Below, piece by piece: positions 1-19,866 of a DNA stretch of 19,866 nucleotides. Within the stretch, counting starts at the first letter, position 1, and each line of letters begins with the position of its first letter. The notes under the pieces were generated by a model. That model saw nothing but the letters and a program-made list of their open reading frames with translations. It ran no database searches and had not been told where the DNA came from. This DNA is from a virus. Taxonomy: Duplodnaviria; Heunggongvirae; Uroviricota; Caudoviricetes. The stretch lies in the IMG/VR virus record IMGVR_UViG_2579778613_000002, positions 1 through 19,866 of that record; one strand, 5' to 3'. Made by a program: the position numbers and the translations under genes.

Positions 1-793
<793 letters not shown>

Positions 794-1868: not shown

Positions 1869-1877
1869 ACTAGGATT

Positions 1878-2063: not shown

Positions 2064-2076
2064 GATTACTCCTTAT

Positions 2077-2105
2077 AAAAAACCCACCTGACGGTGGGTT
2101 TCATT
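2077..2105 (-). terminator. Rho-independent terminator (bidirectional hairpin) downstream of the lipoprotein gene
   Basis: Plus strand reads AAAAAA-CCCACC-TGAC-GGTGGG-TTTCATTTC (stem 2083-2088 / 2093-2098). On the minus strand the hairpin is followed by UUUUUUAU; on the plus strand by UUUCAUUUCUU. Confidence 0.65.
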
Positions 2106-2107
2106 TC

Positions 2108-2539
2108 TTAATCTTGCTTTGTGGACGGTATAAGGGATGCGTTTGCCTCTTTTGGCTTCAAGGTATACATCCCACCATTAAATGGATCAACAGCAAGCCA
2201 ACCAATTAACCCACCAAACACAAGGTTTCCACCAATATACCAACCATTAGCATTGGCTTTGATTGGCAGGGTAACTGGTTCATACCCATCCTTCTCCATA
2301 GTGATCTGGTAGTTCTTTTTGCCAAAATAGCTACCATCTGACTTGGCGAGCGTTACACCTTGTGGGGTCCTACCTTGCGCAACAATCACACCTGACTCAT
2401 CTTTTACCTTAAAGCTCGCGCCAGAAGGATTGCTGTTCACTTGCACAAGTTGCGTTTCATCACCAACAATAGTTGCGCACCCAGATAACATCATAGCGCC
2501 AGCAACGACGCCAATAATCCTCTTCATATCAATTTCCAT
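2108..2539 (-). CDS. Predicted lipoprotein (PEGA-like beta region plus glycine-zipper hydrophobic segment); candidate moron/superinfection-exclusion protein
   Basis: ORF-track ORF. Signal peptide with lipobox: MKRIIGVVAGAMMLSG-C. The true start is probably the ATG at 2527 (MKRIIG...). Middle region (VQVNSNPSGASFKVKDESG...GRTPQGV...KDGYEPV) fits the PEGA-type pattern; C-terminal GWYIGGNLVFGGLIGWLAV is a glycine-zipper-like hydrophobic stretch. Own terminator downstream. Confidence 0.65.
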   Translation of the reverse strand: MEIDMKRIIGVVAGAMMLSGCATIVGDETQLVQVNSNPSGASFKVKDESGVIVAQGRTPQGVTLAKSDGSYFGKKNYQITMEKDGYEPVTLPIKANANGWYIGGNLVFGGLIGWLAVDPFNGGMYTLKPKEANASLIPSTKQD

Positions 2540-2644
2540 ATTTAAAAAACCGGAAACATCCTAATGACAAACCATTCAAATGTGAAGTAGGCAAAAGATG
2601 TTTACTTTTTTCATGGTATCCTGCTCAAAACTAAGGAGGTTGGT

Positions 2645-2833
2645 GTGAAGAAAAAATTTGTAAACGTTGCAAAGTGCGCAATTTTTATATTTTTTATGAC
2701 CTTTTACGGATTTAGTGCCGGAGAAGGTTTCGATCGTGATGCCAATGCATTCAGTTTCTTTTGTCTGTCTATAGTGGTCATAATTGTATGGGTGGAATTA
2801 AAGCAAACATTGTTTCATGTGCTAAGGAAATAA
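2645..2833 (+). CDS. Small hydrophobic membrane protein (62 aa, two predicted TM helices); function unknown
   Basis: ORF-track ORF with GTG start preceded by a strong SD AAGGAGGT (2633-2640). Two hydrophobic stretches (AIFIFFMTFYGF and FFCLSIVVIIVWV). Visibly AT-rich. Convergent with gp16; no convincing promoter found. Confidence 0.5.
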   Translation: MKKKFVNVAKCAIFIFFMTFYGFSAGEGFDRDANAFSFFCLSIVVIIVWVELKQTLFHVLRK

Positions 2834-2850
2834 CCATCCATGGCATTTAG

Positions 2851-4692
2851 TCACTGCTGTGTTGCCTCAGTGGCAAGCAGCGGTCTGATGGCATTTGCAG
2901 CGTTACTTAATGCTCTTTCATAGGCTGGCGTTCCTGCTTTGGTGTTTGCCAGACGTAAGAGCGCATTCCTTGCTGCTTTGGACTCATACAAGCGCATCAT
3001 TGCACCGAAACCAGCCTCAAGCCCCATTGATACGCCAAGAGTCGCAGTTGCGCCAATCGTCCTTATCCTGTTGGCTTGCGATTGCCCCGTCTGAGTTACT
3101 ACATTTGCGGTGTCTGACCTTGCTGTTTGCTGTAGAACTTCATGAAGAGCATCAAGCTCTTTCATGTGCTTTCCAGAAAAAATAGTGTTGTAAATTTCAC
3201 CACCTGACTGAGATTTCAGCTTATTAACTTCAGTGATGAACTTGGCTGGAGAGTCACCGGCCTTTTCCGCTATTTTGCTGACGTAAGCTGCACGCATAGC
3301 ATCTTTCCCTTTATCATCCAGTGCGCTCCAGATTCGTTTCACGTCAGATGGTTTTCTGCTTAATACAACGGTATTTATAAGTTCAGGACTGGCTTCACTG
3401 CTTGCCTTGTTGAGCTTGTTGGCAATGTTTTTATTAAGCACCTTATTATAAACGTTTGCATAATCGGAATTTGCTTTAAGGTATTTTGCTGCGTCTGATG
3501 CACCGAGGTTTTTAGCAACTGCGTTACGAAGGTCTTTTGACATTGCATTCTCTACCATATTGGTAGCTGCTTTTGCCTGGTTGGGGAAGACCATAGCATC
3601 TCCCTGAACATTAGATCTAAATGCTGTTCTGTGCTGACGCAAGAGATCAAACGTAACATCCAAATCAGTTGCAGGGTTTGCTAATTCTTCACGTAGGTTA
3701 CGCAAGGATGTAAGCAGGCTTTGATTGGCAGACGTCCCAAGCCGTTCCTGTCTTGCGATCGCTGTATTCAGAGCATTCATGGTATTTGTGGTATCAACTG
3801 CGGCATTACCCATTTTATTGGTGACGTCATTGATAACAGCGCCAGCGGCATCCTTCCGCCCCCTTAACGTGGTGGTAAGAGATTTCACCACATCATCAGG
3901 GTTGTACTCACCAAAACGGTCAAAATAATTGCTTACCAGCTTACTACGCGTTGCATATTGCTCAGCTCGCTTTGAGCCTGTCCCGAGCAAAGCCCCCTCA
4001 GCATCCTGAGTAAGTCCGCGAGTGAAAGCATTTTTCGGCGGGATAACATCAGATGTCATTGGTGTCACGCCCATCGATTCTGATGTGGCAATTTTCTTCG
4101 CCACTTCTGGCGCAATATCACCTTTTATAGCCGTTATTCCACGCCCTATTCCCTTTGCTGCTGCGGAAAGAACACCCTGAGCGGCAAGGTTAACTCCGGC
4201 ATTTTTAGCTGCATTTTGTGCGAAATCGCCTTTCTGATTTGCGGCCTCTGCCAGTGATCCAATAGCCATGCTTCCTGCCGTTCCAACTCCTGGAACTAAA
4301 TACCCGCCAATTGTTTCTCCAGCTTGCGCATAAGGGTCTGTCGGTCGCTCGACAGGGCGATAAACATCATCCAAAACCTTGGGGCCGCCAAGCCCCTGGC
4401 TGATTGCATTAATCAGACTTGCGCCACCCTGCAATACGTCAAATGGTATGTTTACCAGACCACGACCAGCCTGTTCTGCAATTTGCCCTGCACTTTTACC
4501 ACCTGTGAGCCAATCACCAGCTTGTTGCATCAATGATGGTTCTTCCCGTGTTGGTGCATTATTGGCCTGATTAACTGTTTGTTGCTGAACAGCCTGACCA
4601 GCAAAATACTCATCAATGGCGGTGCCAATATCTTCGGTGCTCGTACCATCAGGAAAGGTAAATGTCTTACCGTTTGCAGTTACTTTCATCAT
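2851..4692 (-). CDS. gp16: Ejection (DNA transfer) protein, P22 gp16 homolog (613 aa)
   Basis: ORF-track ORF. Size and position (last gene of the late operon, after gp20) match P22 gene 16. Gly/Ala/Gln-rich composition typical of ejection proteins. Start overlaps the gp20 stop. Confidence 0.8.
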
Positions 4693-6104
4693 TCCACCGT
4701 AAATTGAATGCCTGATTTTGAGGTATATGACCCAACCTGATTCCGTGGTTCTCCTGAAGGTGTCGAATCTTGTGCTGGCGCTGCGTCAGTATTCATTGAC
4801 ATATACCGCTTAACGGCACTCCCCAATGATTCACCTTTTTTAACATCCAACCCCAATATCTGACCGCCATTACGCGATTGTCCTGGATTGCCATTCGCGC
4901 TCATCCACTCGGCTTTAAACTCATTAAACTGCGCGTTTCGTCGCTCAAGGTTTGCCATCGCATCAAGCCATCTTGCGACCGTCTCAGGGTTATCCATGTC
5001 AGTTGGTGCACCCTGCCGAACGATCTCAACGTCTTTATCCGTTGCGGGGCCGGGAGGTAGGAATTTAAGAACCTGACTGTTAACAAGGGCATTTTGGCGG
5101 ATGCGCAAATCACGCAATGTTGTATCGCTTCCGGTAAGTTTTGCGAACATGTTCTGTGCGTTACCGAACAAACCTGTCGTTGGTTTTTCTGCTCTGAACT
5201 GTTGAGCAAGCGCACTCATGGAATTGGCTGAGTTTGATGATGCTGTAGCATTGTTTACAGCCGTCTCGATGCCTTTTTCCATGTTTACTGACAGCTTAGG
5301 TGCTTCGCTAATCAACTGCTGAGCCTTTTCCTGTGCTTGCTGCATCTTAAACCCGAACTCTTGCTGATCCAGAGCCAAGCGTTGTGCTGCGATATTGTGT
5401 CCAGTCATTGCTGACTGATAGGAAAGGTTTTGCCCTCTCGCCTGAAGTGCTTCTCCAGCCTGATTGCTGCGGATTGTCTCTGCAAGTTTGCCTCGGTCAA
5501 TTTCACGACCAGCCATCTTGTCCTGAACAGCAAACGCCTTTTCTGGTCCAAGCGCACCGAGAGACATAGTAGTCAACATGTGTGATAGCTGCTCTGGATT
5601 ATGGATACCTGTCTGAATCATCCAGTCAGCATTCGCCCCCACGCGATTTAACCTGTCCTTGTTGTCAGTAATGAATTTACTGTAGGCTTCCGGTCCCTGA
5701 GAAAGAGCGACGTTAGCCCTTATGGCTAAATCGCCCATATCGTTGCGTTGCTGATCATTAAGACCGGAAAACGCCTGTTGTGCCTGTGCAACAAACGCTG
5801 GATTTTCCTGGGCAAACTTAAATAGTCCCGATGGATCACCAGAAGCCCATGCATCAGCGTGAACCTTATTGAACGCACTAATCGCTTTCTGTTGCTGTTC
5901 CTGATTGTAAATATCAGCAACTCCAGCCAGACCACGTAACGCGGTCAGACCAACGTTATTTGCACCTGAGCGAGCCAGTTCATTGTTTTCGCGGATCAGA
6001 CCAAGCGTTGCGTTAATGTCGCTTGCCTTTGGCGCATTCTCATTTTGCGTACCGATGCCAGCCAGAAAACCACCAGAATTAATACCCTGTTGCCACGTAG
6101 CCAT
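4689..6104 (-). CDS. gp20: Ejection protein, P22 gp20 homolog (471 aa)
   Basis: ORF-track ORF. Length and position between gp7 and gp16 match P22 gene 20. Confidence 0.8.
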
Positions 6105-6114
6105 TGATTACTCC

Positions 6115-6807
6115 TTAAAACAACGAGCCAAGCAGACCAAGACCGCCGCCGATCGCAGCCCCCCACGGAGTTGATGAACCAATTAATTTCGCAAGTCCGG
6201 CCCCAGCAATAGCACCAGACGCACCTCCGCCAATAGCAGATTGCATTGCTGATGGTCTGTTGGCATTTGCCGCTGCAAGAGCCGCACTTTGCTGCGAAAT
6301 CTGACTCATGTTGTTGGCATATGTCTGCCCGGCGTTTGCCTGACCTTGCAGTGCGCCAAGACCAATATTTGCCAGATTCTGGTAGTTGTTCATCTGACCA
6401 GATAGCCATTGCTGACCAAGCGTTGGTGCGATTGTTGCTAACTGATTACTGGTTGCGGTGGAACCCAATCCACCTGTTGCTTCCGCTGCCGCCAGACTCT
6501 GATAGCGAGCCTGACCAGCAAGATCTTTGTACTGCTGAGAGTTGTAATACTGGTTAAGCGCCTGACCTTGCCCCTCCAGAGACGATAAGTTTTCGAGGCT
6601 TCCGACATACTTATCAGCCAGAGGAGTAAACGGCTTCAGGTTGTTCATGATGGTGTTGAACTGCTGATTTTGCAGGTCTGCTGCATACTTCTGAGCTTCT
6701 GCGGCATACTTTGCGCTTTTATCAGAACTGCCACCTTTCCCACCCTTTTCAGGGCAATAAGGTTCCTCGCCGCGCAGTTTTCTGCCCAGCTTAAATGCAT
6801 ATAACAT
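6115..6807 (-). CDS. gp7: Ejection protein, P22 gp7 homolog (230 aa)
   Basis: ORF-track ORF. N-terminus MLYAFKLGRKLRGEEPYCPEKGGKGGSSDK... and the Gly-rich C-terminal tail match P22 gp7 as I recall it (229 aa). Confidence 0.8.
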   Translation of the reverse strand: MLYAFKLGRKLRGEEPYCPEKGGKGGSSDKSAKYAAEAQKYAADLQNQQFNTIMNNLKPFTPLADKYVGSLENLSSLEGQGQALNQYYNSQQYKDLAGQARYQSLAAAEATGGLGSTATSNQLATIAPTLGQQWLSGQMNNYQNLANIGLGALQGQANAGQTYANNMSQISQQSAALAAANANRPSAMQSAIGGGASGAIAGAGLAKLIGSSTPWGAAIGGGLGLLGSLF

Positions 6808-6809
6808 GG

Positions 6810-7265
6810 CTATCTCCCGTGATTCAGGAAGTCGATTAGTTCTTCGCGTGTGGCGCTGTAAAAAGTCACGTCATCCACGCCTTTAAAGTATTTCTTGATG
6901 GTTCCTACACGCTTAAGGCCAATCATTGCGCAGTACATCTGCCCGTGGCGGAATTTGCGTGCAGCGAACGATGTGACGCACTGAACGGTGGTGTTAGTCA
7001 GAATGTATCGCCAGAACGCCATCCCGATTTCCTTGCTGAATCCGCGAATCTCTGGCAGGTACATGGCGTGGCAATCAAAGGTCAAAGGCTGAATCTCCTG
7101 ATAGTAAACAATTCCGCCGAACTGCCCGTGCACGTTCACCTCAAAGTAACGGCAATCAGGTTTGTAGTCGTATCCATCACCGTTGTTGCTCCCGGCGATA
7201 ATGTCAGGGTGATTTCCGACTGCTTCGATCAGGTCAATGTTTCGCGTTGGTTTGAATGTAATCAT
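6810..7265 (-). CDS. Gene-14-position protein (151 aa); putative head/ejection-protein assembly factor
   Basis: ORF-track ORF located between the tail-needle gene and gp7, where P22 has gene 14. Assigned by synteny and size only; I do not recall the sequence well enough to confirm homology. Confidence 0.5.
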   Translation of the reverse strand: MITFKPTRNIDLIEAVGNHPDIIAGSNNGDGYDYKPDCRYFEVNVHGQFGGIVYYQEIQPLTFDCHAMYLPEIRGFSKEIGMAFWRYILTNTTVQCVTSFAARKFRHGQMYCAMIGLKRVGTIKKYFKGVDDVTFYSATREELIDFLNHGR

Positions 7266-7966
7266 CAGTCAATCAGCCCATGTAATCTAAGTGCCGTTTC
7301 AAGCGCCAGAATACGCTGCCGCGCCTGCTGCAAACCTGTAGCGAGAGATGCGACTTCGGATTGTGTGTACGTAGTGCCGACAGTGTATGACTGGTTAGCG
7401 TTGAATGAGCCAAGAAGTGGCGTACCTGTGGCTGCTGTCCACCCTGTCTGACGAGCACCAATAACCTTGGTGCCGCCGACCGAATAGGATGTTGTTACAT
7501 TGAGGGGAGATGCCAGCGATTGTGTTGCAGTGGCTGTTTTCGATACATAGTCGTCCTGTAATGCAGAAATGTTGCTCTCAGCAGTCGTAACCCGGCCATC
7601 AAGAGCGCTGACGTCAGCCTGTAAAGTGACTATTTCTCCTTCAGCCGTGGTTAGTCTGACATCCAGCTCTGCAATTGCCGCAGTATTCGCAGCAATACGG
7701 ATTTCATGGTCATCTACTTCAATGCGGAGCTGACGAATTCTTTCTTCGTGATCGACCAGAATCACATCCTGCTCATCGTTCCTGACTTGTGCGTCATAAG
7801 CGCCCTGTCCGGCCTCGTTGGCCTTGTTCGCCACGTTACCAACATCAGTACCCTGTGCGATAACGTAAAGCAGATATGACTGCGAGAAGATATTGCGTGG
7901 AAGGATTGATGTATCGAGCTGCGTCGCCTGAACAATAACAGGTGTATTGAGATTCGAATCAGCCAT
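7265..7966 (-). CDS. gp26: Tail needle protein, P22 gp26 homolog (233 aa)
   Basis: ORF-track ORF. N-terminus [43 protein letters not shown] and the central coiled-coil region (RVTTAEGEI...[17 protein letters not shown]) match P22 gp26; same length. Confidence 0.85.
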
Positions 7967-9384
7967 TACTCAATCCTTATCTGGCAGCCAGACAGAGTGA
8001 CAGGTGACTTCGTGATAACACGCAATTTGAAGCCGACATTTTTCCTGATGCGCCCAACTCGCTTCCACAAAACGCGCTTGTCGTAAACGAACGGTTCATT
8101 CTGCTCAATCATCTGCTCACGACCGTAATTGATGCCGTCAGTGGTTGCAGAGAGGAACAGGCGGTCAGCGTACTGAGCGACACCAGTCGATGATTCAACT
8201 TCCAGATCAAAACATCTGGCGTTCTCAGCTTTGAAGAGTGGTGTAAACAACAGGTGTTCTTGCTGTAGTCCATACTGGCTGCTGATATCGAACTGCAATT
8301 TGCCGGTCACGGACTCCAGCTTATCGCCGCACGTTATCTGATTGCCTTCGTAAATAAAGTCGATAGCGCGGTACACATCGTCATACAGTCCAGTTTTCAG
8401 CGCACACCATTGCGGACCATTGGTACTTGAAGATGCGTCGTACACGAGTACATGGCGCGGAAGATGGATAATCAGCAACTCATGCGCATCAAACCGCAGC
8501 GATTCCATCACACCATCAGCCAGTTCATCAGCAGTGTAGGAGCGGAGAATTTTCTCAATGCTCGCGCTGGCGATTGGTGATACCTGACCGGAGCCGATGA
8601 TGTATACAGACGGCGCACCTGTTGCCGGATTGCTGATGAACGCATAAGAATCAGCAAACGGCGTTTTGCAGTAAGTTCCGGCAATACCTTTCTGCACCAT
8701 CAATGATGGCTGTGCGACATACAAAGCGGCACCAGCGGTGGTTGCCCCCGTCAGGGAGAAATATTCAATCGTCGATGAACCAAAGCAGACGATGAAGTCT
8801 CGCCATGTTCCGATGCCGATGATGCCGTCAGGCTGAGACTCTGCACGATATTGTGCGCTGTATCGGTCAGGGTGCGATTCGTCTTCAAGGTCAGTGATAA
8901 ACCATGAATCAGTGCCGTCTTTTGACCACGCATAACGCCCACGCAAGCGCGTAATGTCACGAACCGAACCTAACTCATACTGAGTGAATCCGCTATCTGC
9001 AGGCCAGTTTGAGACGGTTTTAACCGTGCCATCATAGCGATACTCTACCAGTTGACCATTAACGCCTACAGCCTGAGATGTCCGACCATGCGCCATTGAT
9101 ACACGACCACTTCCGGCAACATCACCGACTTCGCTTTCGCCCTTATACAGCTTGCCCCCACACACGCGATATACAGCACTCTGCGCCATGTTGTACTCGA
9201 CGCCGCGCGATATACCGTTCACATCAGAACGTTTGGCAATGCCCGGGAATGAGCGAAGATATCCGCTGCTGTTAAGGATTTCTTTGGGTGTAGCCAGCAT
9301 ATTCACTGGCAGATAGTCGATGTAGTCGGCGTTTCGGAAATCTTTGCCGACACCTTTCATAAGCGGAAGTTGCTGAATCGGCAT
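7966..9384 (-). CDS. gp10: Tail hub / head completion protein, P22 gp10 homolog (472 aa)
   Basis: ORF-track ORF. Length identical to P22 gp10 and position between gp4 and gp26. Confidence 0.8.
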
Positions 9385-9885
9385 TTATTCGCCCCCGTTA
9401 TCGCAAGGTTCCTTCCGGTGGAAGTAATTCCAACCATTCCACTTCGCCAACTGGTTACCGCTACCAACAGGCATACGGTTTGGATAACCGGACTTACATT
9501 TAGCGGCTTTTGCTCTGTCCATTGCAGACAGTTTGACGAGTCGCTCTTTCCCGTATCTGGCAGTGGTTATAAGTTTTGCTGGCGCTTCCAGCGCATAATC
9601 TGGAGCAATGCGGCAGGCAAGGTTGAAAATGACGGCATTGATAGCGTTATTTGATAAACCGTGCTCATCGCCCGGTTCTGGAGCGACATCTGCATCAGCG
9701 AAAATGTAGCCAACGTTGATACCAGGTGACACATCACCGCCAAGCCATTCAGCCATCATCATTTCAAGGTCGTTGACGCCGTCTTCCATAGACTGCGGTT
9801 CTACATCGGTTAACGTGGCATTTGATGCCACACCGAGCTTACGTAATGCCGCAAGAACTAAATCACCCTTCGTTGTCAGGTTCAT
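9385..9885 (-). CDS. gp4: Tail adaptor / head completion protein, P22 gp4 homolog (166 aa)
   Basis: The ORF-track ORF (9385-9966) has a spurious N-terminal extension. Homology to P22 gp4 ([33 protein letters not shown]...) begins at the internal Met, [33 protein letters not shown], giving 166 aa as in P22. Confidence 0.8.
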
Positions 9886-10105
9886 CTGCTGCCGCCTTAG
9901 GTTTTCGACCAGGCTTTTTACGCTGTTTTTCTTCTTGCTCTGGCTCTGGCTCTGACTCTGCAACATCCTTCAGAAGATCATCAGGATGTGCAAACCAGCC
10001 AGCATCCAGATATTCCTGAAGCTCTTCGGCTTTCACGATTTCAAAGTCGTATCCAACGCCTTTCCACTTCTTCATGTTGCCATGGCGAAAGATCATGTGT
10101 GTCAT
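9863..10105 (-). CDS. Small protein with acidic Pro/Glu-rich and basic C-terminal tail (about 80 aa); function unknown
   Basis: ORF-track ORF 9863-10153. Preferred start is the ATG at 10105 ([16 protein letters not shown]...) because SD GGAGA lies 5 nt upstream; alternative starts at 10096 or 10075. Contains an in-frame (GCTCTG)x3 repeat at 9937-9960 encoding EPEPEP. Overlaps the gp4 start by about 23 nt. Confidence 0.45.
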
Positions 10106-10118
10106 GCTTGTCTCCAGA

Positions 10119-10141
10119 TAAAAAAGGGAGCCGAAGCTCCC
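10119..10141 (-). terminator. Rho-independent terminator/attenuator immediately after the coat gene
   Basis: Minus strand reads GGGAGC-UUCG-GCUCCC followed by UUUUUUAU (stem 10126-10131 / 10136-10141). It lies 9 nt downstream of the coat stop codon, inside the late operon. Confidence 0.7.
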
Positions 10142-10149
10142 TCTGGTTA

Positions 10150-11445
10150 TCACGCGGTCTGGTTAGGCAGACCAACACCAATTGCCTCTGGTCGTACAGC
10201 ACATGCTGAATACCACACAGCAATACGGCACTTACCAGACAGAGTGTTGATATCACCCTGCGTTGCGAAGATGCCGTTAACACCAATACCAGGAATGCTG
10301 AAGGAAGACGTTTTCATGCCAGCAAACAGTTCATGGGTTACCGGGATCGGCTGAGACAGCAGACGGATTGAGTCATCAGCCCAGAACACGTTAGCGGTGG
10401 TTGTTGCCACGTTCAGAACGTTTACCGGAGTGGTATCAGCAAGAGAGGTGTTTACGTTAGCGTAAGCCTTCTCTTCTTTTGTCAGTGACGCGTCATCCAG
10501 TGCAATCGGCTTCGGCGTGATTTCGATGTGAGTACCATCGATCACACGGGTGATTGAGAAAGTCGCATCATCAGTCAGCACGTTCTTCGCCATCTGAGAC
10601 AGGAATTTCACACCAGTGAAGCTGATTTTGTCGCCGCGCTTAAATCCGGTGGTGGAGGATACGGTCACCGTTGCAACACGGTTGTCGACGTTCTCTTTGT
10701 TACCATCGGTATCAAGGGTGTATGCCTGCGGCTTAAACTTCTGCGCTCCAGACACAGTTACACCAGTAGCGGTTGACTTGGTAACTGCCGGAAGTTTCGG
10801 TGAGCGAAGAATTTCATCAAAGCCAGCAATCTGACGCTGAATAGTACCGTTGCGATACGCTTCTTCAGGAACGCGCCCAAAGATGTCACCATCTACCAGG
10901 TTGCGGCCTGCTTTGCGGTAATCGTCAGGGTTCAGGAAGTAACTGATGCCCATATCGCGGTTTAGCTCACGGGAGAACATCAGGCGCTCTGCATCAGACA
11001 CAAAATCCCAGCCAGACAGGCCAGTAGATGGACCAATTGCGCGGGTATCGTGAACAACAAGTGAGCCCATTTCGGTTGCCTGTTTGGCAATCGCTGACTC
11101 AATGTTATTCGCCAGTTTTTTGGCGGATGCCTGGATGCGGCGACGGTAAGAACGCTCATCACGCAGGTCATCTGCACGAAGCTCGAAGAAATCGTTATCC
11201 GGATCGCCCATGTTGCACTTCACGGAGAGTTCCAGAATCCCGGTTGCGTTGCCAGTTAAATCCCAGCCAGTCTGGGTTGGCGCTTCCTGCTCAACAGGCA
11301 TCCACACGGTGTTGCTTGAACGCTGCATGGATTCTGCCGGAGGGGTGTATTTTGTCACTTTGGACGCCATTGGCGTCAGGTTCTGGACGGTTTCGATGAT
11401 TTCATCGATAGCGTAAGTAACTAACTGCCCTTCTTTGAGAGTCAT
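10150..11445 (-). CDS. gp5: Major coat protein, P22 gp5 homolog (431 aa)
   Basis: ORF-track ORF. Sequence (...[22 protein letters not shown]...[10 protein letters not shown]...CRIAVWY...[14 protein letters not shown]) closely matches P22 coat protein (430 aa) as recalled; downstream of scaffold. Confidence 0.9.
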
Positions 11446-11512
11446 ATATTGAATACCTTACTTTCTTTATGTGCTATACTATTGTTATATCAACATATAG
11501 CGCATTAGGGTT

Positions 11513-12034
11513 ATGAGCATGGAACTGAATGAATACTTCGAATACCGCGATGGCTCTTTGGTTTGGAAAGCCAGAAGCTCTGAATTTTTCAACAACAAAA
11601 AGAATCGCAACTATCACAACGTTTGGAATGCAAAACACGCTGGGAAAGTTGCTGGTCTTTTAGAAAGCAATGGATATATCCGCATAAGAATTAACGGCAT
11701 TAAGTGGCTAGCACACCGCATCGTATGGGTGATGTTTAACGGAGATATTCCAGAAGGCATGGAAATTGACCATATAAATGGGATTCGCCACGACAACAGA
11801 ATTGAAAATCTTCGTCTTGTGAAAAAATCAGCAAACCAAAGGAATAGAATCAAACTATCTAAAAATAACTCCAGCGGAATATCTGGAGTTTACTTTTGCA
11901 ACACGCGGAAAAGATGGATCGCTCATAAGCGACTGCTTAATGCAAGAGTGCAAAAAGTATGTTCTTCATTCGAAGAGGCGAAAGAAGTAATCAGAAAGTT
12001 TGACGAGGAAAACAACATCACGATATCGAAATAA
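11513..12034 (+). CDS. HNH homing-type endonuclease (NUMOD4-like N-terminus, HNH motif, AP2-like DNA-binding domain), inserted between scaffold and coat genes
   Basis: ORF-track ORF, antisense to the late operon. HNH motif EIDHINGIRHDNRIENLRLV; N-terminal YRDGSLVWK and downstream GISGVYF...KRWIAHK fit the NUMOD4/HNH_3/AP2 architecture of phage homing endonucleases. Start is more likely the second ATG at 11519, which has AGGG 8 nt upstream. Extended -10 TGcTATACT at 11472-11480. Its TAA stop (12032-12034) directly abuts the scaffold stop codon (12035-12037). Visibly AT-rich. Confidence 0.8.
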   Translation: MSMELNEYFEYRDGSLVWKARSSEFFNNKKNRNYHNVWNAKHAGKVAGLLESNGYIRIRINGIKWLAHRIVWVMFNGDIPEGMEIDHINGIRHDNRIENLRLVKKSANQRNRIKLSKNNSSGISGVYFCNTRKRWIAHKRLLNARVQKVCSSFEEAKEVIRKFDEENNITISK

Positions 12035-12946
12035 TTATCGAATTCCTTTATTCAGTTGCGCCTTAAGCTTGCGGTATGTCTCTACATCCCCTTTGTTTGC
12101 TGCCGCTTCCATCTGCTTTTCAATCGCAGATATATTTGCAGCAACAGCGTGTCCCTGAATGGGTTCATCAGGTAACGGGGCTTCTGAAACAGGCTTGGCT
12201 CGAGGCTTGAGAGTTAAACGTTCTGACAGTCGAGTGAGTTCAATCAGCGCGGATTGCCCGTCCATCGCCAGCAACTGGCGTGTTTTCTCAGGATTAGCAC
12301 CAAGGTGATACATGAGAGCGGCGGATTTCTCCGGGAAGAGGCGCATGATGTCGGCACCGACTGCTGGCGGCACCAGTTGCATGAATGCATCCTCTTTCTC
12401 CTGATAGTCAGGGATATTGAGCTTTTCCGCTGCGTCGTAGTGCTTACGGGCTGCCTCGACGTATTGCGCTGATTGCTGGGTGAACTCCTGAGTTTTTCGA
12501 CCCTGCTCGGCGACAGCCTGGCTTCGTGCATCCATAGCCTTGATCTGCCATTCACTGTTTGCCTGCTGGAAGGCAGCCAGTGCGCGGCTCTGGTCATAGT
12601 CGTACTTAGCCAGTGCGTCTTCGGAAAGATAATCGTTAGGGTCTGGTTGTTTTGGTAACTCAGGGCTCACCCGCAGGTGCTCCGGCAACTCTCCACGCTT
12701 AACTGCTTCCATCTGCTGCTCAAGCTCACGCTGGCGTTTGCGTTCGATGCGGCGACGGGCAAATTCAGCATTAGTTGCCGGGTCTTGTTTTGGTTTCTCA
12801 TCGTCTTTCAGGACAATCTCGAAGCCTTCTTCCTGACCTGCGTTGTCGTTGGCATTATCGACAACTAAGCCATCAGCAGATGCCGCTGCATGATTGCCGG
12901 GCAGGGTTAATTCTTCAGAAGCCTGAATGTCGGTGGTTTGGTCCAT
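12035..12946 (-). CDS. gp8: Scaffolding protein, P22 gp8 homolog (303 aa)
   Basis: ORF-track ORF. Same length as P22 gp8 and near-identical stretches (e.g. [12 protein letters not shown]..., ...[49 protein letters not shown]...). Confidence 0.85.
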
Positions 12947-12959
12947 GATTAACTCTCTC

Positions 12960-15128
12960 TTATTGAGGTGTCTCGGCTACTCCGCCGGAGGGGATTTGAA
13001 CTTGACGCATAAGATTCGCGAAATCCATGCGTTGTGAATGAGTCTGGTCTGCATCTTTAAGAAGCAGCTCAGCGTTAGCACGAGCATCTTTGCTGCGCTG
13101 TTGCTGGAATTGACCTACGAGCTTGAGGTACTCACGCAGTTCTGCCTGCTTGTCGAGGTCCATATTGTTGAAGATTTCTGCAATCTTCGCGGCGTTGAGT
13201 TGGTTTTGAGCTTCAACCTTGGCGGCTTCAACCTGAATCTGCGCCTGTTGGTTCTCTGCCTTGAGCAATTCAGCCTGACCTTGCAGAAGGATACCCTGCG
13301 CCTGAATTTGCTCTGCTGATGGCTGCTGCGGCTGCTGTTGAGCCTGCTGTACCATCTCCATCTCTTCAGGTGTTTCTGGTTTCTTCAGCCCCATCATCAC
13401 CAGTTGCTTGTTCGCGTACTCTCGCATCATCTCGACGCCTTTACCGTCAAGCAGCGTGAAGTATTGCAGCATCAGCATCTGGAACTCTGGAGTACCTTGC
13501 GGAACCTTTGTTAGCAACTCCTGAATCTCTGCGCGATTCTGTTCCTTCATACTCTGGAAGGATGGTCCAACGTCTGTATAGCACTCATAGCGACCGCGAA
13601 TGTCGTTGAGTGTGACCACATTGCCGGACTGGTAATCGACAACTTGCGCATAGAGTTGAACGTCTTTCTCGCTTCCATCTTCAAGTGTCAGCGTTACATG
13701 ACGAGGAACGTCATAAATATCGTTGACCATTGAGGCATAAATCTCGCCATCACGTCGCATTGCGGTAGCCAGGTTATCCTGAAACACGTATGTCTCAAGA
13801 TCTGCCCGCATGTTCAGTTGATTGACGGTATCGAAAGCGACCTGAGAGTTTGCCGCCTGCGCATCCACGCCAAGACTAGCCACCTCTTTCACTGCGTTGG
13901 TGGCAGCCTCAAGCATGTAAGCGTTGGCTTGCGGCACTTCAGGGTTTTCCATGTAGGAGATTGGACCAATCGGCAGGTCGTTACCGTTTTCATCGGTCCT
14001 GTTCTGCAGATAGTACGGATAGTCATCATTTCCACCGTACATGTATTCGTAGCCTTCGATTTGCTCAGGGAAGAAGGTCGGTTTCTTCTTCGGTGAACGA
14101 GCAACAATATCGGCGTTGAACGACATGATCATGTTACGAAGGCGCTGACCGTCTTTCGTCAGCCTTACCACTCCTTCGTAGCACTCCTTGTCACCAGCGA
14201 ATGACCATTCGCCATACACTGGAACGATTGGAATATGCTCTCCGGCTATCTTCTCGCGGTCTTTCAGTATCTGCGTGCAGGTGATGATCGACTTATACAC
14301 ACGCCGACGCTTCACCTTGCGCTCTGCTACCTTAATGAATCCACGATTAGCCAGGTCGTCGATGACGTCTTTGATATCCTGCTGGTAATAGCTGACCGGC
14401 TCACCTGTCAGCGGGTCGCGGTAGATGAAGACCTTCTCCTTCTTCTCTTCTACCTCGTAATACTCAGCGACGTAGACGACATCATTCGACACCCACGGGA
14501 ATAGCCATGTATCGTTAGGATTCTGGAAAGATGGCAAGGTATCCGGGTCAATACCGTAATCCTCTGCGAACTCTTTCCAGCCATTGCGCGACAAGGCGTT
14601 AATCACCGTGCAATGCTTAGCGTCGCTCTTATCCATCTGCTTGCTGTTGGCGTCCCATATAACGTGTGAGCAAGCTTCATGGATTGGCAGGCGTCGGATT
14701 ACCTGATTGTTGCTTGTTGGGTCGTTGTCTTCGTACTGCGTGACCAGACGCCATGCACCAACGCCTGACTCTATCTGCTCACGAACGCCAACGTTAACGG
14801 CAATTTTTGCCGTATTATGGCGCATATCAGTACGATACATTCCCATCAACACATCGGCAGCATCAGGATTAGCACCGTCTTTTGGTCGGAAGAGAACGTC
14901 GATAGGGTTCCGGCGCATCTCTGCGACCAGTTTCCTGACCACCGGGCGAACAACATCGAATTGTCCGCGATATTGCAGGGTGGTGTAGTTTGATAGCCAG
15001 TCATCCCATTGGCTTATGCGACTGAAGTATAAATCGTTAGAAGCTTCTGTTCTCGCCTCGTCGGAAGACATCCAATCAACATCGAATGCTTGCAGTATCT
15101 TATTTAATCGCTCTGCGTTGTCAGTCAT
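12960..15128 (-). CDS. gp1: Portal protein, P22 gp1 homolog (722 aa)
   Basis: ORF-track ORF. Strong similarity to P22 portal as recalled (e.g. [56 protein letters not shown], and the C-terminal Gln-rich barrel region). Confidence 0.9.
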
Positions 15129-15147
15129 AACTTTACCGTGATAAAAT
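15118..15147 (+). promoter_or_regulatory. Sigma70-type promoter for the antisense HNH endonuclease gene, overlapping the portal start
   Basis: -35 TTGTCA (15118-15123), 18-bp spacer, extended -10 TGaTAAAAT (15139-15147). Followed by SD AGGAG (15166-15170) 8 nt before the GTG start at 15179. Confidence 0.5.
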
Positions 15148-15178
15148 CAATGGGACAACTTCAACAGGAGATTCTATT

Positions 15179-15679
15179 GTGAGCCATCCATCTATAGAAG
15201 ATATAAGGAAAAATTTCACATACGATGCTGAAACCGGAATTTTGTACGCGGCTAATCGCACAAGGAGGACAGACCTTAACGGCAAGCCAGTTGGGTGCCA
15301 GCATGGAAACGGATACCTTGATGTAAGGCTTGGTAAAAAACTGTACTACGTGCACAGAATTTGTTTTGCGCACTACTATGGTTACTGGCCCGAAGCAGTA
15401 GATCACATAAACGGAAACCGTGCTGATAACCGCATCTGTAATCTTAGAGATGCCAATAAGCAGTTGAACGGACTAAACCGTGGCATGGATTGCGACAATT
15501 CAACTGGATACAAAGGAGTTTCCTATCGCAAGGACACAAATAACTACATGTGGCAATTTGTGGTAGAAGGCAAGAAATACACAAAAAGCGGATTCGCTAC
15601 AGCATTAGATGCATACAAGCATAAGGTAGCATTTATTAACGCTCTGAATTCCGCTGCCTCTGAATTTCTCAAGCCGTAA
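15179..15679 (+). CDS. HNH homing-type endonuclease (paralog of the 11513-12034 gene), inserted between TerL and portal genes
   Basis: ORF-track ORF with GTG start, antisense to the late operon. HNH motif AVDHINGNRADNRICNLR; same domain order as the other HNH gene (NUMOD4-like FTYDAETGILY, HNH, AP2-like GYKGVSYRK...MWQF). Ends 9 nt from the TerL stop codon. AT-rich. Confidence 0.8.
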   Translation: MSHPSIEDIRKNFTYDAETGILYAANRTRRTDLNGKPVGCQHGNGYLDVRLGKKLYYVHRICFAHYYGYWPEAVDHINGNRADNRICNLRDANKQLNGLNRGMDCDNSTGYKGVSYRKDTNNYMWQFVVEGKKYTKSGFATALDAYKHKVAFINALNSAASEFLKP

Positions 15680-15688
15680 CAACAGTAT

Positions 15689-17191
15689 CTATCTTGTTGA
15701 CCGTGCGATGGGCCTGATTGGGGCTGGTATCTTTTTCTCTTTTGGTTTTTTGATGTCGCGCATCATTTTTGCGAAGCGGCGCATCATGTATGCATAGCGA
15801 ACGGCGGATAGCACGTCGTCGTTAAGCTTGACGATTTTCCCGTTTTCATCGCGGTGATAGAGGCGGAACTCCTCAAAGAATGGCTCACAGGTGTTGAATA
15901 CTTTGAAGCGACCATCAAGCATCATGTCGCGCAATTCAGTGATTCCAGGCTCCACCGCGTTACCGCCATCAGGCCATGTCGCATGCTCCTGCAACATCAT
16001 AAAACCAGCATCTGCATACTGCCCTTTGAGCTGCTCACCGCCGCCCTTCTCGTGCTGGTTTCCGTCATGAGGCCATGCTGTTGGCACTTTATGCGCCCAT
16101 GATTTAACAGCTCCCCATGCCTGAACGGCTGTTTTTTCTTTCGCCTTCCACACGCGTGAAACGTAGATTGTGTCTGCGTCCTTATCCCACCAAAGCTGAA
16201 CCTGCGCCTGTGGGTGATCCCATCCGAAATCCATCCCGCCAATTACGTAGAAGTGATCAGGACACTCGAACGGCTGACACTTAATCGTCTCTTCCGGTAT
16301 CTGGAATATTCGCCCGCTACCCATCGTAGGAATACCGCGAGCACGCGCCTCTCTCTCATGCTCAGGATAGGATGCGATGATTTGCTCTTTCTGCTCGTCG
16401 GTGTAGTGCTCAGCGTCATAGATGGTCATGTTGACCACTTTCTGAGACTTGCTGGGATTCTTCAGGAACTTGGTAACAACGTCAGACATCCCCATCAGCG
16501 GGGTAAACGTCAGAATTGAGAATTGCCCGTATTTGTTGGTACGGGTAAGACCTTCGCCATAAATGCTGTATGGTGGCTCTTCGTCAAACCACACGCCGTG
16601 GATTGTGTCACCCTGCCAGCGAGCACGGCCTTGCGAGTATGGCTTGAAGTAGCAGATTGAAATGCCATCTTCAACGCCATCAGCCGTGTGATGCTTAACC
16701 AGAAGATGATCAACAAGGTTCGGAAAGAAAGGAGACTTCTTCCAGCTAATGATGTCTTCTTTAGGTATGGAACCGTAGCCTGGCTCATCATTCTCTTCGA
16801 TACGACCACACAGGATGCGTTGAGTCGTTTTGGTTACAGTCTCGTTTGTCTCGCCGCCAATCCAGAAGACAACAGGCTCATAGAAACGCTTACCTTTCCA
16901 CTCCCCACCATATTTACCATCAGCCGGATAGCCTTTTGTTCCCGGATAACGCCCGGTAAGGTGAAACGCGACTTCAGCAGCACCAGTAAATGACTTACCA
17001 AGCTGGTTACCAGCCATAAAACAGCGCTCTGGATAGTCATGCCCGGCGTCGATGAACTCACGCTGTTTGCTGTATGGCGTAAATTCATATAGCAGGTGTG
17101 TGTTCCGGTAGTTCTCTTCTTCTTCGAGTAGCTCGAGCAATTCTATTTGCTCTTCGTCGCTCAGGTTATCAAGAATCGCGTCCAGTTCCAC
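15689..17191 (-). CDS. gp2: Terminase large subunit, P22 gp2 homolog (500 aa)
   Basis: ORF-track ORF. N-terminus [70 protein letters not shown]... matches P22 TerL as recalled, with a Walker A-like GNQLGKS. Start overlaps the TerS 3' end. Confidence 0.9.
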
Positions 17192-17663
17192 GGTTGAATA
17201 GCTCCTTGATACGAGAGCGTCGCTTATCGCGATCTCCCTTATCAGGTGTCACGTCTTCAACTTGCGACTGCTCTTTGAGGCCCAAATCACGGGCGATAAT
17301 GTTAGCGTTGAGAAGGTCAGCGGCTGCGCCAGAGAATTTCTGGTCGTAGATGACCTGCTCTGCTCGCGTAACGACTTCAGATAAATCTTCTCGCAGGCGA
17401 TATGTGCGCCATGTTTCAAGAGTCACATCAATGAACAGAGTGAGGCCGGTAATGGTCATCGCTCGCATCTTGGCGATAGGCTCTTGTATCACTTCACCCT
17501 GATACGAGAACGCCTTCATCTCCCATAGCGGGTTAGCTTCTACCCACTCGAAGTATTCACAACAAGCAGCCCACAGCGCCTCAGGCGATTCGAATTTAGG
17601 ATTTCGCCCATGACTACTGCGGGCCTCCCAAAATCGGTTGCCCTTTGGTGCTGCCATATTCAT
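17169..17663 (-). CDS. gp3: Terminase small subunit, P22 gp3 homolog (162-164 aa)
   Basis: ORF-track ORF. Sequence (M)[51 protein letters not shown]... matches P22 gp3 as recalled. The start may be the ATG at 17657 rather than 17663. Confidence 0.85.
17369..17390 (-). other. pac: pac site (headful packaging initiation sequence) within the TerS gene
   Basis: Minus strand reads GAAGATTTATCTGAAGTCGTTA, encoding EDLSEVV of TerS. This matches the 22-bp P22 pac sequence as I recall it, at the expected place inside gene 3. Confidence 0.5.
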
Positions 17664-17692
17664 CTCACTTATTTGTTATTTCAGGTTGAGCA

Positions 17693-17935
17693 TCATGCTC
17701 CGGTAGTGAACAGGTCTAACGCTTCCTTCGATTTACGCACCGCTTCGATAGTGCGGGTCGTGATATCTGAATTAGCGCCGCCTGACTGGAAGTGAATTTT
17801 GAATAGCTCAAGCTTCAGCTCGTCAGTGCCAATGAATTGAAATGCTTCTTCTGCGGCTGCGTTCTGGTTCATGACCAGTTTGTAAATCTCTAACTGGAAT
17901 TTCTGTTCTTCAGTCATGGGAATAATCTCTGCCAT
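17693..17935 (-). CDS. Hypothetical protein (80 aa) immediately upstream of TerS
   Basis: ORF-track ORF. SD GGAG about 6 nt upstream of the ATG at 17935. Predicted helical; no recognisable motif. Confidence 0.5.
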   Translation of the reverse strand: MAEIIPMTEEQKFQLEIYKLVMNQNAAAEEAFQFIGTDELKLELFKIHFQSGGANSDITTRTIEAVRKSKEALDLFTTGA

Positions 17936-17956
17936 TGTTGGCTCCGTTTATCCGTT

Positions 17957-17982
17957 AAAAGGGATATCAGTTAAGTTATCCC
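17957..17982 (-). terminator. Weak terminator- or attenuator-like hairpin between the gp49/gp66-like gene and the 80-aa ORF
   Basis: Inverted repeat GGGATA-N10-TATCCC (17961-17982), followed on the minus strand by UUUUAACGG. A second inverted repeat AAGCCATT-N20-AATGGCTT lies at 17994-18029. Confidence 0.3.
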
Positions 17983-18038
17983 GTGTAGGGTATAAGCCAT
18001 TATCAAAGCCACTCAGTAAGGAATGGCTTTTGTAATAA

Positions 18039-18410
18039 CTACTGTTCGCTTAGCTTCTGCTTCAGCAAGTAACCTTCGAACATCCAGATTTTGTTTACAG
18101 CATTCTGCCGGGCAATCTTCCGACCAATTTCTGCATCAAAATTTTCCGGACTTGCACAGGCACTCTCTCCGGTGACGGTGAAGCCGTTGCGCAGCACCAG
18201 GACGCAGAACGTCAGCAGAGAAAGTGATTCGTGCGGCTGGTAGTTTACCTCTCCGCCAGTATGTTTCGCTTTTATGGCTTTGCCAAAGGCACCATCCTCT
18301 GCTGTGAAATATGCCTCCTGAGCAATAATTCCTTCGATATGGTCTGGCGTAACTCGCGGTGCCGTTTTGCCTTTCTCAACGATTTCTTTTTCGATTTGCT
18401 GGTCGTTCAT
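18039..18410 (-). CDS. Conserved phage protein of unknown function, possibly Gp49/Sf6-gp66 family (123 aa)
   Basis: ORF-track ORF 18039-18479. The annotated N-terminal extension starts at a TTG and overlaps the terminator at 18453-18477, so the ATG at 18410 (MNDQQIEKEIV...) is preferred. Motif ...LTFCVLVLRNGFTVTGESACASPENFDAEIGRKIARQNAVNKIWMFEGYLLKQ resembles a widespread prophage family; family name from memory only. Confidence 0.55.
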   Translation of the reverse strand: MNDQQIEKEIVEKGKTAPRVTPDHIEGIIAQEAYFTAEDGAFGKAIKAKHTGGEVNYQPHESLSLLTFCVLVLRNGFTVTGESACASPENFDAEIGRKIARQNAVNKIWMFEGYLLKQKLSEQ

Positions 18411-18452
18411 AATTATGACCTTGTTGGTTGTTAAAGATGTTTTTGTGGTGGC

Positions 18453-18477
18453 AATAAAAAAGGCCGCCTGAGCGACC
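18453..18477 (-). terminator. Rho-independent terminator downstream of the AT-rich 80-aa ORF
   Basis: Minus strand reads GGUCGC-UCAG-GCGGCC (one G-U pair) followed by UUUUUUAUU (complement of 18453-18461). Confidence 0.6.
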
Positions 18478-18494
18478 AATTTAATAATTAATTA

Positions 18495-18737
18495 TCAATA
18501 ATGTGGGAATTGGCTACTATTTTGCAAGATAACCCAAGATGGGCGAAACAAGTCAAAAACATTGATGCTTAACAGGGCTTCATTTATTGATTTTTTTTCA
18601 TCCGTAGAAACTCCGCGTCCTGCATTTGACATTACAAGCTGACCATTAACTATTTCACTACATTGTTTTACATAACTACCTGGCGGTATTGATTGAAAGT
18701 TACATGTACCATTTATTATTTTATCAATTTCACTCAT
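18495..18737 (-). CDS. AT-rich moron ORF (80 aa); function unknown
   Basis: ORF-track ORF. SD GAGG 5 nt upstream of the ATG. Strikingly AT-rich compared with neighbours, and followed by its own terminator. Protein has no motif I recognise. Confidence 0.5.
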   Translation of the reverse strand: MSEIDKIINGTCNFQSIPPGSYVKQCSEIVNGQLVMSNAGRGVSTDEKKSINEALLSINVFDLFRPSWVILQNSSQFPHY

Positions 18738-19176
18738 ATCAACCTCGTCTAGTTGTTCGTCATAGATTCAGTGGCTGGCGGTGACGATTCCGCTTTTCGG
18801 GAGCTACCCTAGCCACTGCTTGATTCTATCCGATGTCTTTCCATCAGTCCGCCACCACAAAGAATCTTTTTTGCCATAAGGCAGGAGGTTCATCTTTCAG
18901 TGGCTGCCAGTGTTATTTCCCCGCTTTCTGGCTTGGGTTGTTTCGCTGTACTGCCGTAACTGGTTACCAAGAATAAATTTTGGTTTCATTATCAAGCCCA
19001 TCCGTAGATAGGCTTTGTAATGAACTGGCTCTTATCTCAACGCAGCCCCTTACCGCGCGCCATATGCTTAACTTCAAGCATCAGCAATGAGATGTTAAAT
19101 CTGGATTCACTCCAGAAGTGATCACCACCCTGTCTACAGAGCCAGATGTGAAGGATGATGAGTAAAATTATCGCTA

Positions 19177-19653
19177 TCATCGAAGGCATTGCGTCCTGAT
19201 GTATTCCTGAAGCGTTCTCAGTGCTGTTTGGTCGCGGATAATTCCGTCCCGGACACCGAGAACGTTTCGTCCAGCAACTGGAGAGAGTTCGACGGTGGCA
19301 TCATTGCCCATGCCGGAGGCGCCGGAGGCGCCGGAGGTTTCGGCTGAGGATGGCACAGGGCATTTTCCTTTGACGAGCACCCTGCCACCATTATCAAGCT
19401 TGCGCCGAAGAGCATCATTTTCAGCTTTCGCATCAGCTAACTCCTTCGTGTATTTAGCATCGAGTGCATCAGCAGCACGCTGGCGTTGCTGCATGTCAGT
19501 AATGGTGGCGGTCGCCTGCTTCAGCTCACTGACTTTTTTATCACGCTGTTCTTTGTAGGCGATGGCGTTATCACGGTAATGATTAACAGCCCATGACAGG
19601 CAGACGATGATGCAGATAACCAGAGCGGAGATAATCGCGGTTACTCTACTCAT
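19177..19653 (-). CDS. Rz: Rz-like inner-membrane spanin (i-spanin), P22 gene 15 homolog
   Basis: ORF-track ORF 19177-19665 begins at a GTG. The ATG at 19653 ([23 protein letters not shown]...) is preferred: SD GGGGG lies 5 nt upstream and it overlaps the lysozyme stop (ATGA). N-terminal TM helix followed by a charged coiled-coil periplasmic domain. Confidence 0.85.
19218..19433 (-). CDS. Rz1: Rz1-like outer-membrane lipoprotein spanin (o-spanin), embedded in Rz in a different reading frame
   Basis: ORF-track ORF lying entirely within Rz. [19 protein letters not shown] lipoprotein signal with lipobox, followed by a proline-rich segment [14 protein letters not shown] typical of Rz1. Confidence 0.8.
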
Positions 19654-19865
19654 TGTTGCCCCCACAAACAGACTTCACGCTCAATCTCACGGCGAGTCAT
19701 CAGCCCTTTCCATTGCTTACCGCCAGCGTATGTCCAGCGCCGTAGCTGATCACATGCGCCTTTGATATCGCCCTGGTTTATTTTGCGAAGAAGCGTCGAT
19801 GTTCTGAAATTTCCAGCACCAACGTTGTAAACGAACGAGTAAAGAGCGCCGCGCGTTGTTTCCGG
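19650..19865 (-). CDS. gp19: Phage lysozyme (endolysin), C-terminal 71 codons; 5' end lies beyond the window end, P22 gp19 homolog
   Basis: Hand translation of the minus strand from the window edge gives [71 protein letters not shown], a T4-lysozyme-like C-terminus matching P22 lysozyme as recalled. Stop TGA overlaps the Rz ATG. Confidence 0.8.
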
Positions 19866-19866
19866 T

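Follow-up and report, generated by a model that had tools for sequence, protein, structure and literature searches.

Background

Lambdoid phages carry morons in the sense of Hendrix and Juhala, bor and lom of lambda being examples, and the interval between Q and the holin gene of these phages carries cargo such as the stx genes. Structured RNAs ahead of a gene are equally familiar: the c4 RNA of P1 and P7 acts on the downstream icd-ant leader, free-standing homing endonuclease genes of T4 have hairpins that sequester the ribosome-binding site (RBS), and the preQ1-II and SAM-II riboswitches are pseudoknots that sequester the Shine-Dalgarno (SD) sequence. The int-alpA RNA is associated with int and alpA genes and probably acts in trans. 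This RNA motif (RF02996) was described by Weinberg et al. in 2017 (PMC5737381) and has the gene type small RNA (sRNA) in Rfam; a P22-like 'ant moron' has been described for epsilon34 (PMC2629481). Here we compare with these systems a locus built around ORF80, an open reading frame (ORF) for an orphan protein of 80 amino acids (aa), which lies in a stretch of 19,866 nucleotides (nt) of a Caudoviricetes virus (positions 1 to 19,866 of IMG/VR record IMGVR_UViG_2579778613_000002). We refer to this whole stretch as the window, and positions are those of the window unless a locus is named.

On balance, ORF80 is probably the payload of a compact, horizontally exchanged accessory cassette, or moron, that sits among the late genes of a P22/Sf6-like prophage. 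Its foreign composition, its sporadic distribution, its occurrence in two genomic slots, a precise payload swap and the leader and terminator that frame it all support this reading.

Evidence for exchange of the ORF80 cassette

The homologous segment shared with other prophages is larger than the gene itself:

18441..18830, minus strand: mobile cassette (promoter-like element, leader, ORF80 and terminator), delimited by homology extents; 38.2% GC
18495..18737, minus strand: ORF80, gene for the orphan 80-aa protein, ATG start, taken from the ORF list

The slot between Rz and the DUF2560 gene holds ORF80 in the window, in locus L001, in L002 (as the homologue P0002) and in copies on 12 prophage-derived IMG/VR contigs, with a Rha or Gp49-family gene variably around it. 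A second homologue type, P0004, sits between the late antiterminator gene (PF03589) and the holin gene, directly behind a tR'-like hairpin-U5; we call this position the Q-slot. Homology with the window extends over 18830-18446 in L002 and down to 18441 in L001, and covers 18799-18446 in the Q-slot copies, which share with the window the leader, the ORF and the terminator and nothing else.

Locus L004 carries an ORF80 homologue in the Q-slot and a DUF551 gene in the Rz-to-terminase slot. Upstream of that DUF551 gene the sequence is 98% identical to window positions 19212-18740, the identity stopping 3 nt before the ATG, and downstream it is 97% identical over 37 nt (window 18477-18441; L004 8530-8566), starting at the terminator stem. 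These flank identities indicate that the payload was replaced precisely, with leader and terminator conserved on either side of it, and such a swap suggests that the two are probably recombination handles as well as expression signals. As judged from these alignments, the cassette travels as one block between the Rz-to-terminase and the Q-to-holin cargo hotspots.

The distribution of ORF80 is sporadic. It is carried by 15 of the 5,426 complete E. coli genomes, and other prophages have DUF551 or nothing between the same flanks. Phage Sf6 lacks it, a tblastn search with ORF80 against 50,697 deposited phage records gave 0 matches, and no relatives were found in genomes representing 185,579 species. 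An earlier note on this DNA, made from the letters and a list of ORFs, had called ORF80 a moron in a cargo hotspot; the patchy occurrence of the gene, the DUF551 gene found between the same flanks in other prophages and the diverged unit in the Q-holin hotspot bear this out.

Two RNA family matches were noted in the prophages that carry homologues. Sub-threshold Hammerhead_3-like matches of 29.6 bits (gathering score 48.5) lie at L004 5761-5821, L005 1207-1267 and L008 334-394, in the stretch that separates the late antiterminator gene from the cassette of the ORF80 homologue. The L002 prophage, carrier of the P0002 homologue, has a match to isrJ (an Hfq-binding sRNA, RF01393) at 2807-2885 with 44.2 bits, just downstream of its Q antiterminator gene.

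Coding capacity of ORF80

The composition of ORF80 sets it apart from its surroundings. Its GC content is 34.2%, and 23.5% at third codon positions (GC3), against 47.9% GC for the whole window, 46-53% GC in the neighbouring genes and 51-55% GC3 in the four neighbours that were measured (the Gp49-family gene, the terminase small and large subunit genes and Rz). Among all 243-nt windows it falls in the lowest 0.2% in GC, so that the earlier description of the ORF as much more AT-rich than its flanks holds in both measures.

Compared with its homologues P0002 (73% identity) and P0004 (71%), ORF80 shows a ratio of nonsynonymous to synonymous substitutions (dN/dS) of 0.18-0.21 at dS 0.74-0.86. The third codon position takes 28-30 of the 47-50 nucleotide differences, and the sole difference in length is one whole codon, which keeps the frame. 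The four full-length sequences of the family all share residues C12 and C26 and the C-terminal motifs FRPSW and QFP.Y. Because of the dN/dS of about 0.2 and the frame-preserving indel relative to homologues of 71-73% identity, we regard ORF80 as a real gene under selection. On the opposite strand the only ORF is one of 31 aa, and a gene there was dropped from consideration.

The same comparison bears on the idea that ORF80 is a decaying or non-functional frame and that the RNA cassette is the conserved, selected entity. Its starting point is a homopolymer within the gene:

18591..18598, minus strand: A8 homopolymer in ORF80 (codons E47-K48-K49), site of +1 frameshift variants, read from the sequence

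One extra A at this tract leads to truncated products of 52 aa, which form clusters P0005 (15 members) and P0006 (2 members), and locus L145 has a frameshifted copy. These variants, in at least 17 deposited sequences besides L145, together with the lack of homologues outside a narrow clade and the low confidence of the predicted structure (see below), are what one would expect of decay. Decay is nevertheless hard to reconcile with a dN/dS of about 0.2 at the divergence given above, a 3:1 bias towards third positions, an in-frame codon deletion and the conservation of both cysteines and of the FRPSW and QFP.Y motifs, and we consider it very improbable. The frameshifts at A8 could reflect real slippage or inactivation, or else homopolymer assembly errors.

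Leader RNA upstream of ORF80

The earlier note had also suspected a structured leader ahead of the gene, and this region gives a significant match to an Rfam family:

18757..18819, minus strand: leader of the int-alpA RNA class (Rfam RF02996), found by cmscan, 63 nt
18811-18818/18769-18776, minus strand: leader helix P1
18807-18809/18799-18801, minus strand: leader helix P2
18790-18793/18778-18781, minus strand: leader helix P3
18782-18789, minus strand: P3 loop, AAUCGUCA
18757..18762, minus strand: UGACGA, complement of the P3 loop segment UCGUCA and proposed pseudoknot partner
18743..18749, minus strand: second GACGA copy (18745-18749), which abuts or overlaps the SD sequence GAGG (18743-18746), 7 nt before the ATG

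At 41.8 bits the match exceeds the gathering score of 35.8 (E = 9e-6 for the whole window), and it covers model positions 1-71. In the Rfam scan of the window, int-alpA and sar (discussed with the surrounding genes) were the only matches, with none to C4 or riboswitch models. The minimum-free-energy fold of the leader equals the motif, an 8-base-pair (bp) P1 enclosing P2 and P3, at -25.4 kcal/mol. The leader of the Q-slot copies scores below the Rfam threshold, yet it folds to the same architecture, with compensatory changes from window to Q-slot in P1 (G-C to A-U and A-U to C-G) and in P3 (C-G to A-U and G-C to U-A). The int-alpA element is also found 5' of ORF80 in L001 and 5' of the DUF551 genes in L004 and L011.

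The duplex between the loop segment UCGUCA and UGACGA has a predicted energy of -7.5 kcal/mol and is kept in the window, L002 and L004. Possibly the GACGA copy next to the SD sequence serves as an alternative pairing partner of the P3 loop. In the DUF551 cassettes of L043 and L078, whose loop is ACUCGUCA, the best complement is the SD-overlapping site GACGAG.

Leaders of the same class in other viruses

A scan of IMG/VR with the motif core CTAG-N7-12-CGAAAAGCGG-N6-12-CCGCC returned at least 120 viral contigs (L014-L133); the counts in this and the next paragraph hold among the matches listed. Of 120 instances, 88 have an outer stem of at least 6 bp. The complement of the P3 loop is found 10-35 nt downstream of P1, and loop and partner covary, as in UCGUCA/UGACGA, CCGUGA/UCACGG, UCACUCAA/UUGAGUGA and CUCCUGA/UCAGGAG. 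When loops were swapped among instances (58 distinct loops), the native duplexes had a mean energy of -9.2 kcal/mol compared with -5.6 kcal/mol for foreign ones, and 62% of the native loops did better than 90% or more of the foreign ones; with the upstream flank as control the figure was 10%.

The position of the motif relative to genes is just as regular. In 50 of 57 distinct instances, hairpin 2 is followed at 30-62 nt, most often at 40-45 nt, by an SD sequence and the start codon of an ORF in the same orientation that encodes at least 50 aa; the reverse direction gives 1 of 57, and random positions give 7.2%. Two placements are seen for the loop complement: its end lies 3-7 nt upstream of the start codon, where it overlaps the SD sequence, or, in about half of instances, 17-22 nt upstream. 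Genes 3' of the motif encode HNH and NUMOD4-HNH endonucleases, a GIY-YIG protein, Rha, DUF1376 and DUF551 proteins and many products that belong to no family. The P22-like subtype of the leader (loop nAUCGUCA) precedes at least 12 ORFs of 56-137 aa that are unrelated to one another, and many of these units end in GGTCGC-N4-GCGGCC-T6.

These data address a different view of the locus, namely that the int-alpA element is a separate trans-acting small RNA that merely lies upstream of ORF80 and exerts no control over it. Rfam types RF02996 as 'Gene; sRNA', a terminator-like U-run follows P1 in some instances (e.g. L019 and L046), and a -10 element directly upstream would suit a small transcription unit. 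In the window, however, P1 has no trailing U-run and is followed by 20 nt of leader and then by the SD sequence and the ATG; the distance to the co-oriented ORF is fixed in the 50 of 57 instances just mentioned, and the loop covaries with the adjacent downstream sequence, which would make it its own target, in cis or from the same locus. We judge a purely separate small RNA to be unlikely. The fixed distance between leader and ORF and the covariation of the loop point to a cis-acting leader with a pseudoknot rather than to a trans-acting small RNA, or at least not to such an RNA only. This suggests that int-alpA is mainly a cis-acting leader, in which the loop would pair with the RBS region and covary with it. 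On the function of int-alpA, or on a cassette architecture with a cis leader, nothing was found in the searchable literature, the supplement of the original description lying outside that search.

Putative transcription signals

The cassette is bounded by a promoter-like element on one side and by a terminator-like hairpin on the other:

18823..18828, minus strand: -10-like hexamer TAGAAT, read from the sequence, 86 nt upstream of the ATG
18456..18477, minus strand: terminator-like hairpin GGUCGC-UCAG-GCGGCC followed by U6 (stem 18477-18462, U-run 18461-18456)

TAGAAT had been proposed before as a possible -10 element at this place, and hexamers of this kind recur at the equivalent position in unrelated cassettes. 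The homologous locus L002 has an extended -10, TGATATAAT, aligned with TAGAAT. Across the IMG/VR survey, -10-like hexamers (TATAAT, TAGAAT, GATAAT, TACAAT and TAAAAT, several of them TG-extended) cluster 7-15 nt before the CTAG of the motif. Both the position of TAGAAT in the window and this spacing in the survey imply that transcription would start at the base of P1.

The hairpin has 6 pairs, 5 of them G-C, starts 17 nt after the stop codon and has a folding energy of -11.1 kcal/mol (z = -2.0). Since 4 terminator-like sites were found in the region compared with 2.4 expected, the hairpin alone is weak evidence; it becomes credible as a terminator because it recurs after unrelated cargo ORFs. 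The stem GGTCGC-N4-GCGGCC-T6, with varied loops, lies 3' of at least 6 unrelated cargo ORFs and is kept in the Q-slot copies. Loci in which it ends unrelated small-ORF cassettes are L004, L017, L021, L037, L042, L056, L067, L122 and L132. The earlier note had credited ORF80 with a terminator of its own. At sequence level the element is indeed there and travels with ORF80; it is not private to this gene, as it ends cassettes with unrelated ORFs. The hairpin may also be a 3' recombination handle for payload exchange.

Several observations weigh against an autonomous cassette with a conflict-related payload, and some of them suit another explanation, in which ORF80 is a late-operon accessory gene and nothing else: it would have no transcription of its own and would be made after induction by Q-antiterminated polymerase. 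Under that explanation the leader would be a translational or stability element within a polycistronic RNA, and the hairpin-U6 would matter only for stray, non-antiterminated transcription. ORF80 is co-oriented with the late operon. A generic promoter scan did not call TAGAAT, because the -35 region in the window is poor. The Q-slot copies have no -10 at all and sit directly behind the tR'-like terminator, which implies that these copies depend on late read-through transcription. Against this stand the -10-like hexamers, several TG-extended or a perfect TATAAT, which are found at a fixed short distance before the motif in otherwise unrelated upstream sequences, and TGATATAAT at the aligned position in L002; a conserved terminator would moreover be pointless on a purely antiterminated transcript. 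A gene confined to late-operon transcription is possible, in our view, but doubtful.

Further points weigh against the cassette reading itself. The folding energy of the window leader is not exceptional compared with shuffled sequences (z = -1.5), and in L002, where P1 is degenerate, the leader fails to fold into the motif, so that the leader is not indispensable. The pseudoknot was deduced from covariation and permutation tests in our own scripts rather than from a curated alignment. Frameshifted copies of ORF80 exist, and the gene is thus dispensable in some lineages. The structural model of the protein is of low confidence, and a role in conflict is argued from context only. With these points taken into account, we still favour the exchanged accessory cassette, at the strength given at the outset.

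Predicted properties of the protein

In a collection of 5.8 billion proteins, 6 clusters match ORF80. One, from E. coli, has 62 member sequences and is near-identical to it (96%); the others are the two frameshifted and truncated ones, P0003 (71 aa, an N-terminally divergent fragment) and the full-length P0002 and P0004. The protein matched no model in Pfam, PHROGs, NCBIfam or the PADLOC defence set, and a sequence-profile search against the PDB gave no match either. AlphaFold2 (AF2), run on an alignment of 4 sequences, predicts a three-helix bundle with a low predicted local distance difference test score (pLDDT) of 65.9. A Foldseek search with this model against PDB and BFVD found nothing below E = 1 (myoglobins, for instance, appeared above it). 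Nothing useful was found in the literature under the accession of the ORF80 protein.

These results agree with the earlier statement that the protein resembles nothing recognisable, contains two cysteines and has no obvious transmembrane segment. A membrane or secreted protein was dropped as an option, since the sequence has neither a signal peptide nor a hydrophobic run of at least 18 residues. No match to a conserved structural or lysis accessory protein emerged; ORF80 is absent from the 50,697 phage records mentioned above and occurs in two slots with different neighbours. A role as a lysis accessory protein was likewise dropped, the Q-slot copies not being syntenic with lysis genes.

When 1.84 billion cluster representatives were searched exhaustively with HMMER, the search recovered ORF80's own family and, besides it, only weak multi-stretch matches to large secreted repeat proteins (E 7e-6 to 6e-4). 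The latter fall into two unrelated types, CARDB-repeat proteins and Cys-repeat proteins with dockerin domains, and the similarity covers residues 4-49 of ORF80 (window 18591-18728). Homology to repeat proteins was rejected: both unrelated repeat families match the same stretch of 23-46 residues, the single-stretch scores are non-significant at database scale by a rough estimate, and the CxxC of the repeat is not conserved in ORF80. The similarity is probably due to chance. Residues 16-38 of ORF80 may form a beta-hairpin in place of the low-confidence AF2 helix.

Surrounding genes

From its gene content we identify the surroundings of ORF80 as a P22/Sf6-like E. coli prophage, with all genes of this region on the minus strand:

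19177-19653, minus strand: Rz (PF03245), family match
19218-19433, minus strand: ORF nested in Rz, taken as Rz1 from its position and by analogy to the Sf6/P22 annotation
19037-19189, minus strand: 50-aa ORF like Sf6 gene 65 (phrog_11822; Sf6 gene 65 / epsilon34 gene 67 family)
18039-18410, minus strand: Gp49/Sf6-gp66 family gene
17693-17935, minus strand: DUF2560 gene
17169-17663, minus strand: terminase small subunit gene, gp3
15689-17191, minus strand: terminase large subunit gene

Rz/Rz1 lie on one side of ORF80 and the terminase genes on the other, in line with the earlier placement between lysis cassette and terminase genes. The 50-aa ORF overlaps the end of Rz, has a strongly hydrophobic N-terminus and is widely conserved after Rz; it possibly encodes a small membrane protein. 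The roughly 300 nt between this ORF and ORF80 hold no convincing ORF.

The Gp49/Sf6-gp66 gene (window 18036-18441) is itself a presence/absence module: in L001 and most IMG/VR copies the ORF80 terminator is joined straight to the region upstream of DUF2560, with the junction at a short ACAAAA repeat. At the other end of the window, positions 795-862 (plus strand) match sar RNA in Rfam with 85.7 bits. In the immI region of P22 this RNA regulates ant as an antisense RNA, and the strong match implies that the prophage carries a P22-type 'ant moron'.

Working model and comparison with known systems

Read in the order of transcription, the proposed cassette would consist of a weak sigma-70 -10 element, a 63-nt leader of the int-alpA class, the 80-aa ORF and an intrinsic terminator. 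In a lysogen, the -10 element would yield a monocistronic mRNA of about 360 nt that runs from the base of P1 to the terminator, while during lytic growth Q-modified polymerase would read through the cassette as part of the late operon. Pairing of the loop with the SD region would most likely throttle or gate translation of the payload, and leader and terminator would double as handles for recombination. As to what is being delivered, our guess, held far less firmly than the cassette itself, is that the ORF80 protein works on its own as a binder or inhibitor in conflicts between phage and host or between phages, be it in exclusion, defence or counter-defence. The guess draws on the small size of the protein, its non-membrane character, its stand-alone position among neighbours that vary and the nature of the genes found in the same leader-terminator frame and the same slots. 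From context we would also guess that it is not a structural, lysis or packaging component.

More tentatively, the argument can be extended beyond this prophage. We entertain, as a possibility that we would not bet on, that int-alpA is the 5' half of a portable chassis (a -10 element, a self-matched pseudoknotted leader, the payload and a terminator) that shuttles and gates diverse payloads in lambdoid and P22-like phages and in many others, with ORF80 as a previously unseen conflict effector. The payloads would then be diverse and often orphan or selfish: HNH and GIY-YIG endonucleases, Rha, DUF551 and ORF80, among others.

As an orphan moron in a recognised cargo hotspot, ORF80 is nothing unusual. 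Of greater interest is a by-product of the analysis: a curated sRNA family seems to behave as the 5' leader of a reusable cassette for cargo expression. In practical terms, the signature CTAG...CGAAAAGCGG...CCGCC upstream, combined with GGTCGC-N4-GCGGCC-T6 downstream, would flag small accessory ORFs in prophages, the class of gene that yields anti-defence, exclusion and host-takeover proteins.

Compared with the stx-type cargo of the Q-to-holin interval, the P0004-type homologues occupy the like position between antiterminator and holin, where no other gene separates them from the late terminator, and from this position they would depend on induction as Stx does. The window copy differs in that it sits in the Rz-to-terminase slot with a -10-like element, and the protein is unlike any toxin or known cargo.

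The resemblance to c4 RNA, to the T4 hairpins and to the SD-sequestering pseudoknots is one of working principle only, that is, a structured RNA upstream with a loop that covaries and can pair with the RBS region. Unlike c4 and the riboswitches, to which it has no match in sequence or model, the leader class of ORF80 has its pairing partner 17-22 nt upstream of the start, and not on the SD sequence, in about half of instances. With RF02996 the relation is closer, the ORF80 leader lying above the gathering threshold and having the P1/P2/P3 architecture. What sets it apart from the described motif is its setting among the late genes of a P22-like prophage rather than near int or alpA, the lack of a U-run behind P1 and its position as the 5' leader of a protein gene.

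The closest parallel is with the morons of lambdoid phages. Like them, ORF80 is an extra gene, present or absent at a fixed position in an operon, of atypical composition and flanked by a promoter-like element and a terminator. It differs in having an orphan payload within a unit that includes a conserved structured RNA leader, and in that the frame of leader and terminator is reused for many unrelated payloads and found in two hotspots.

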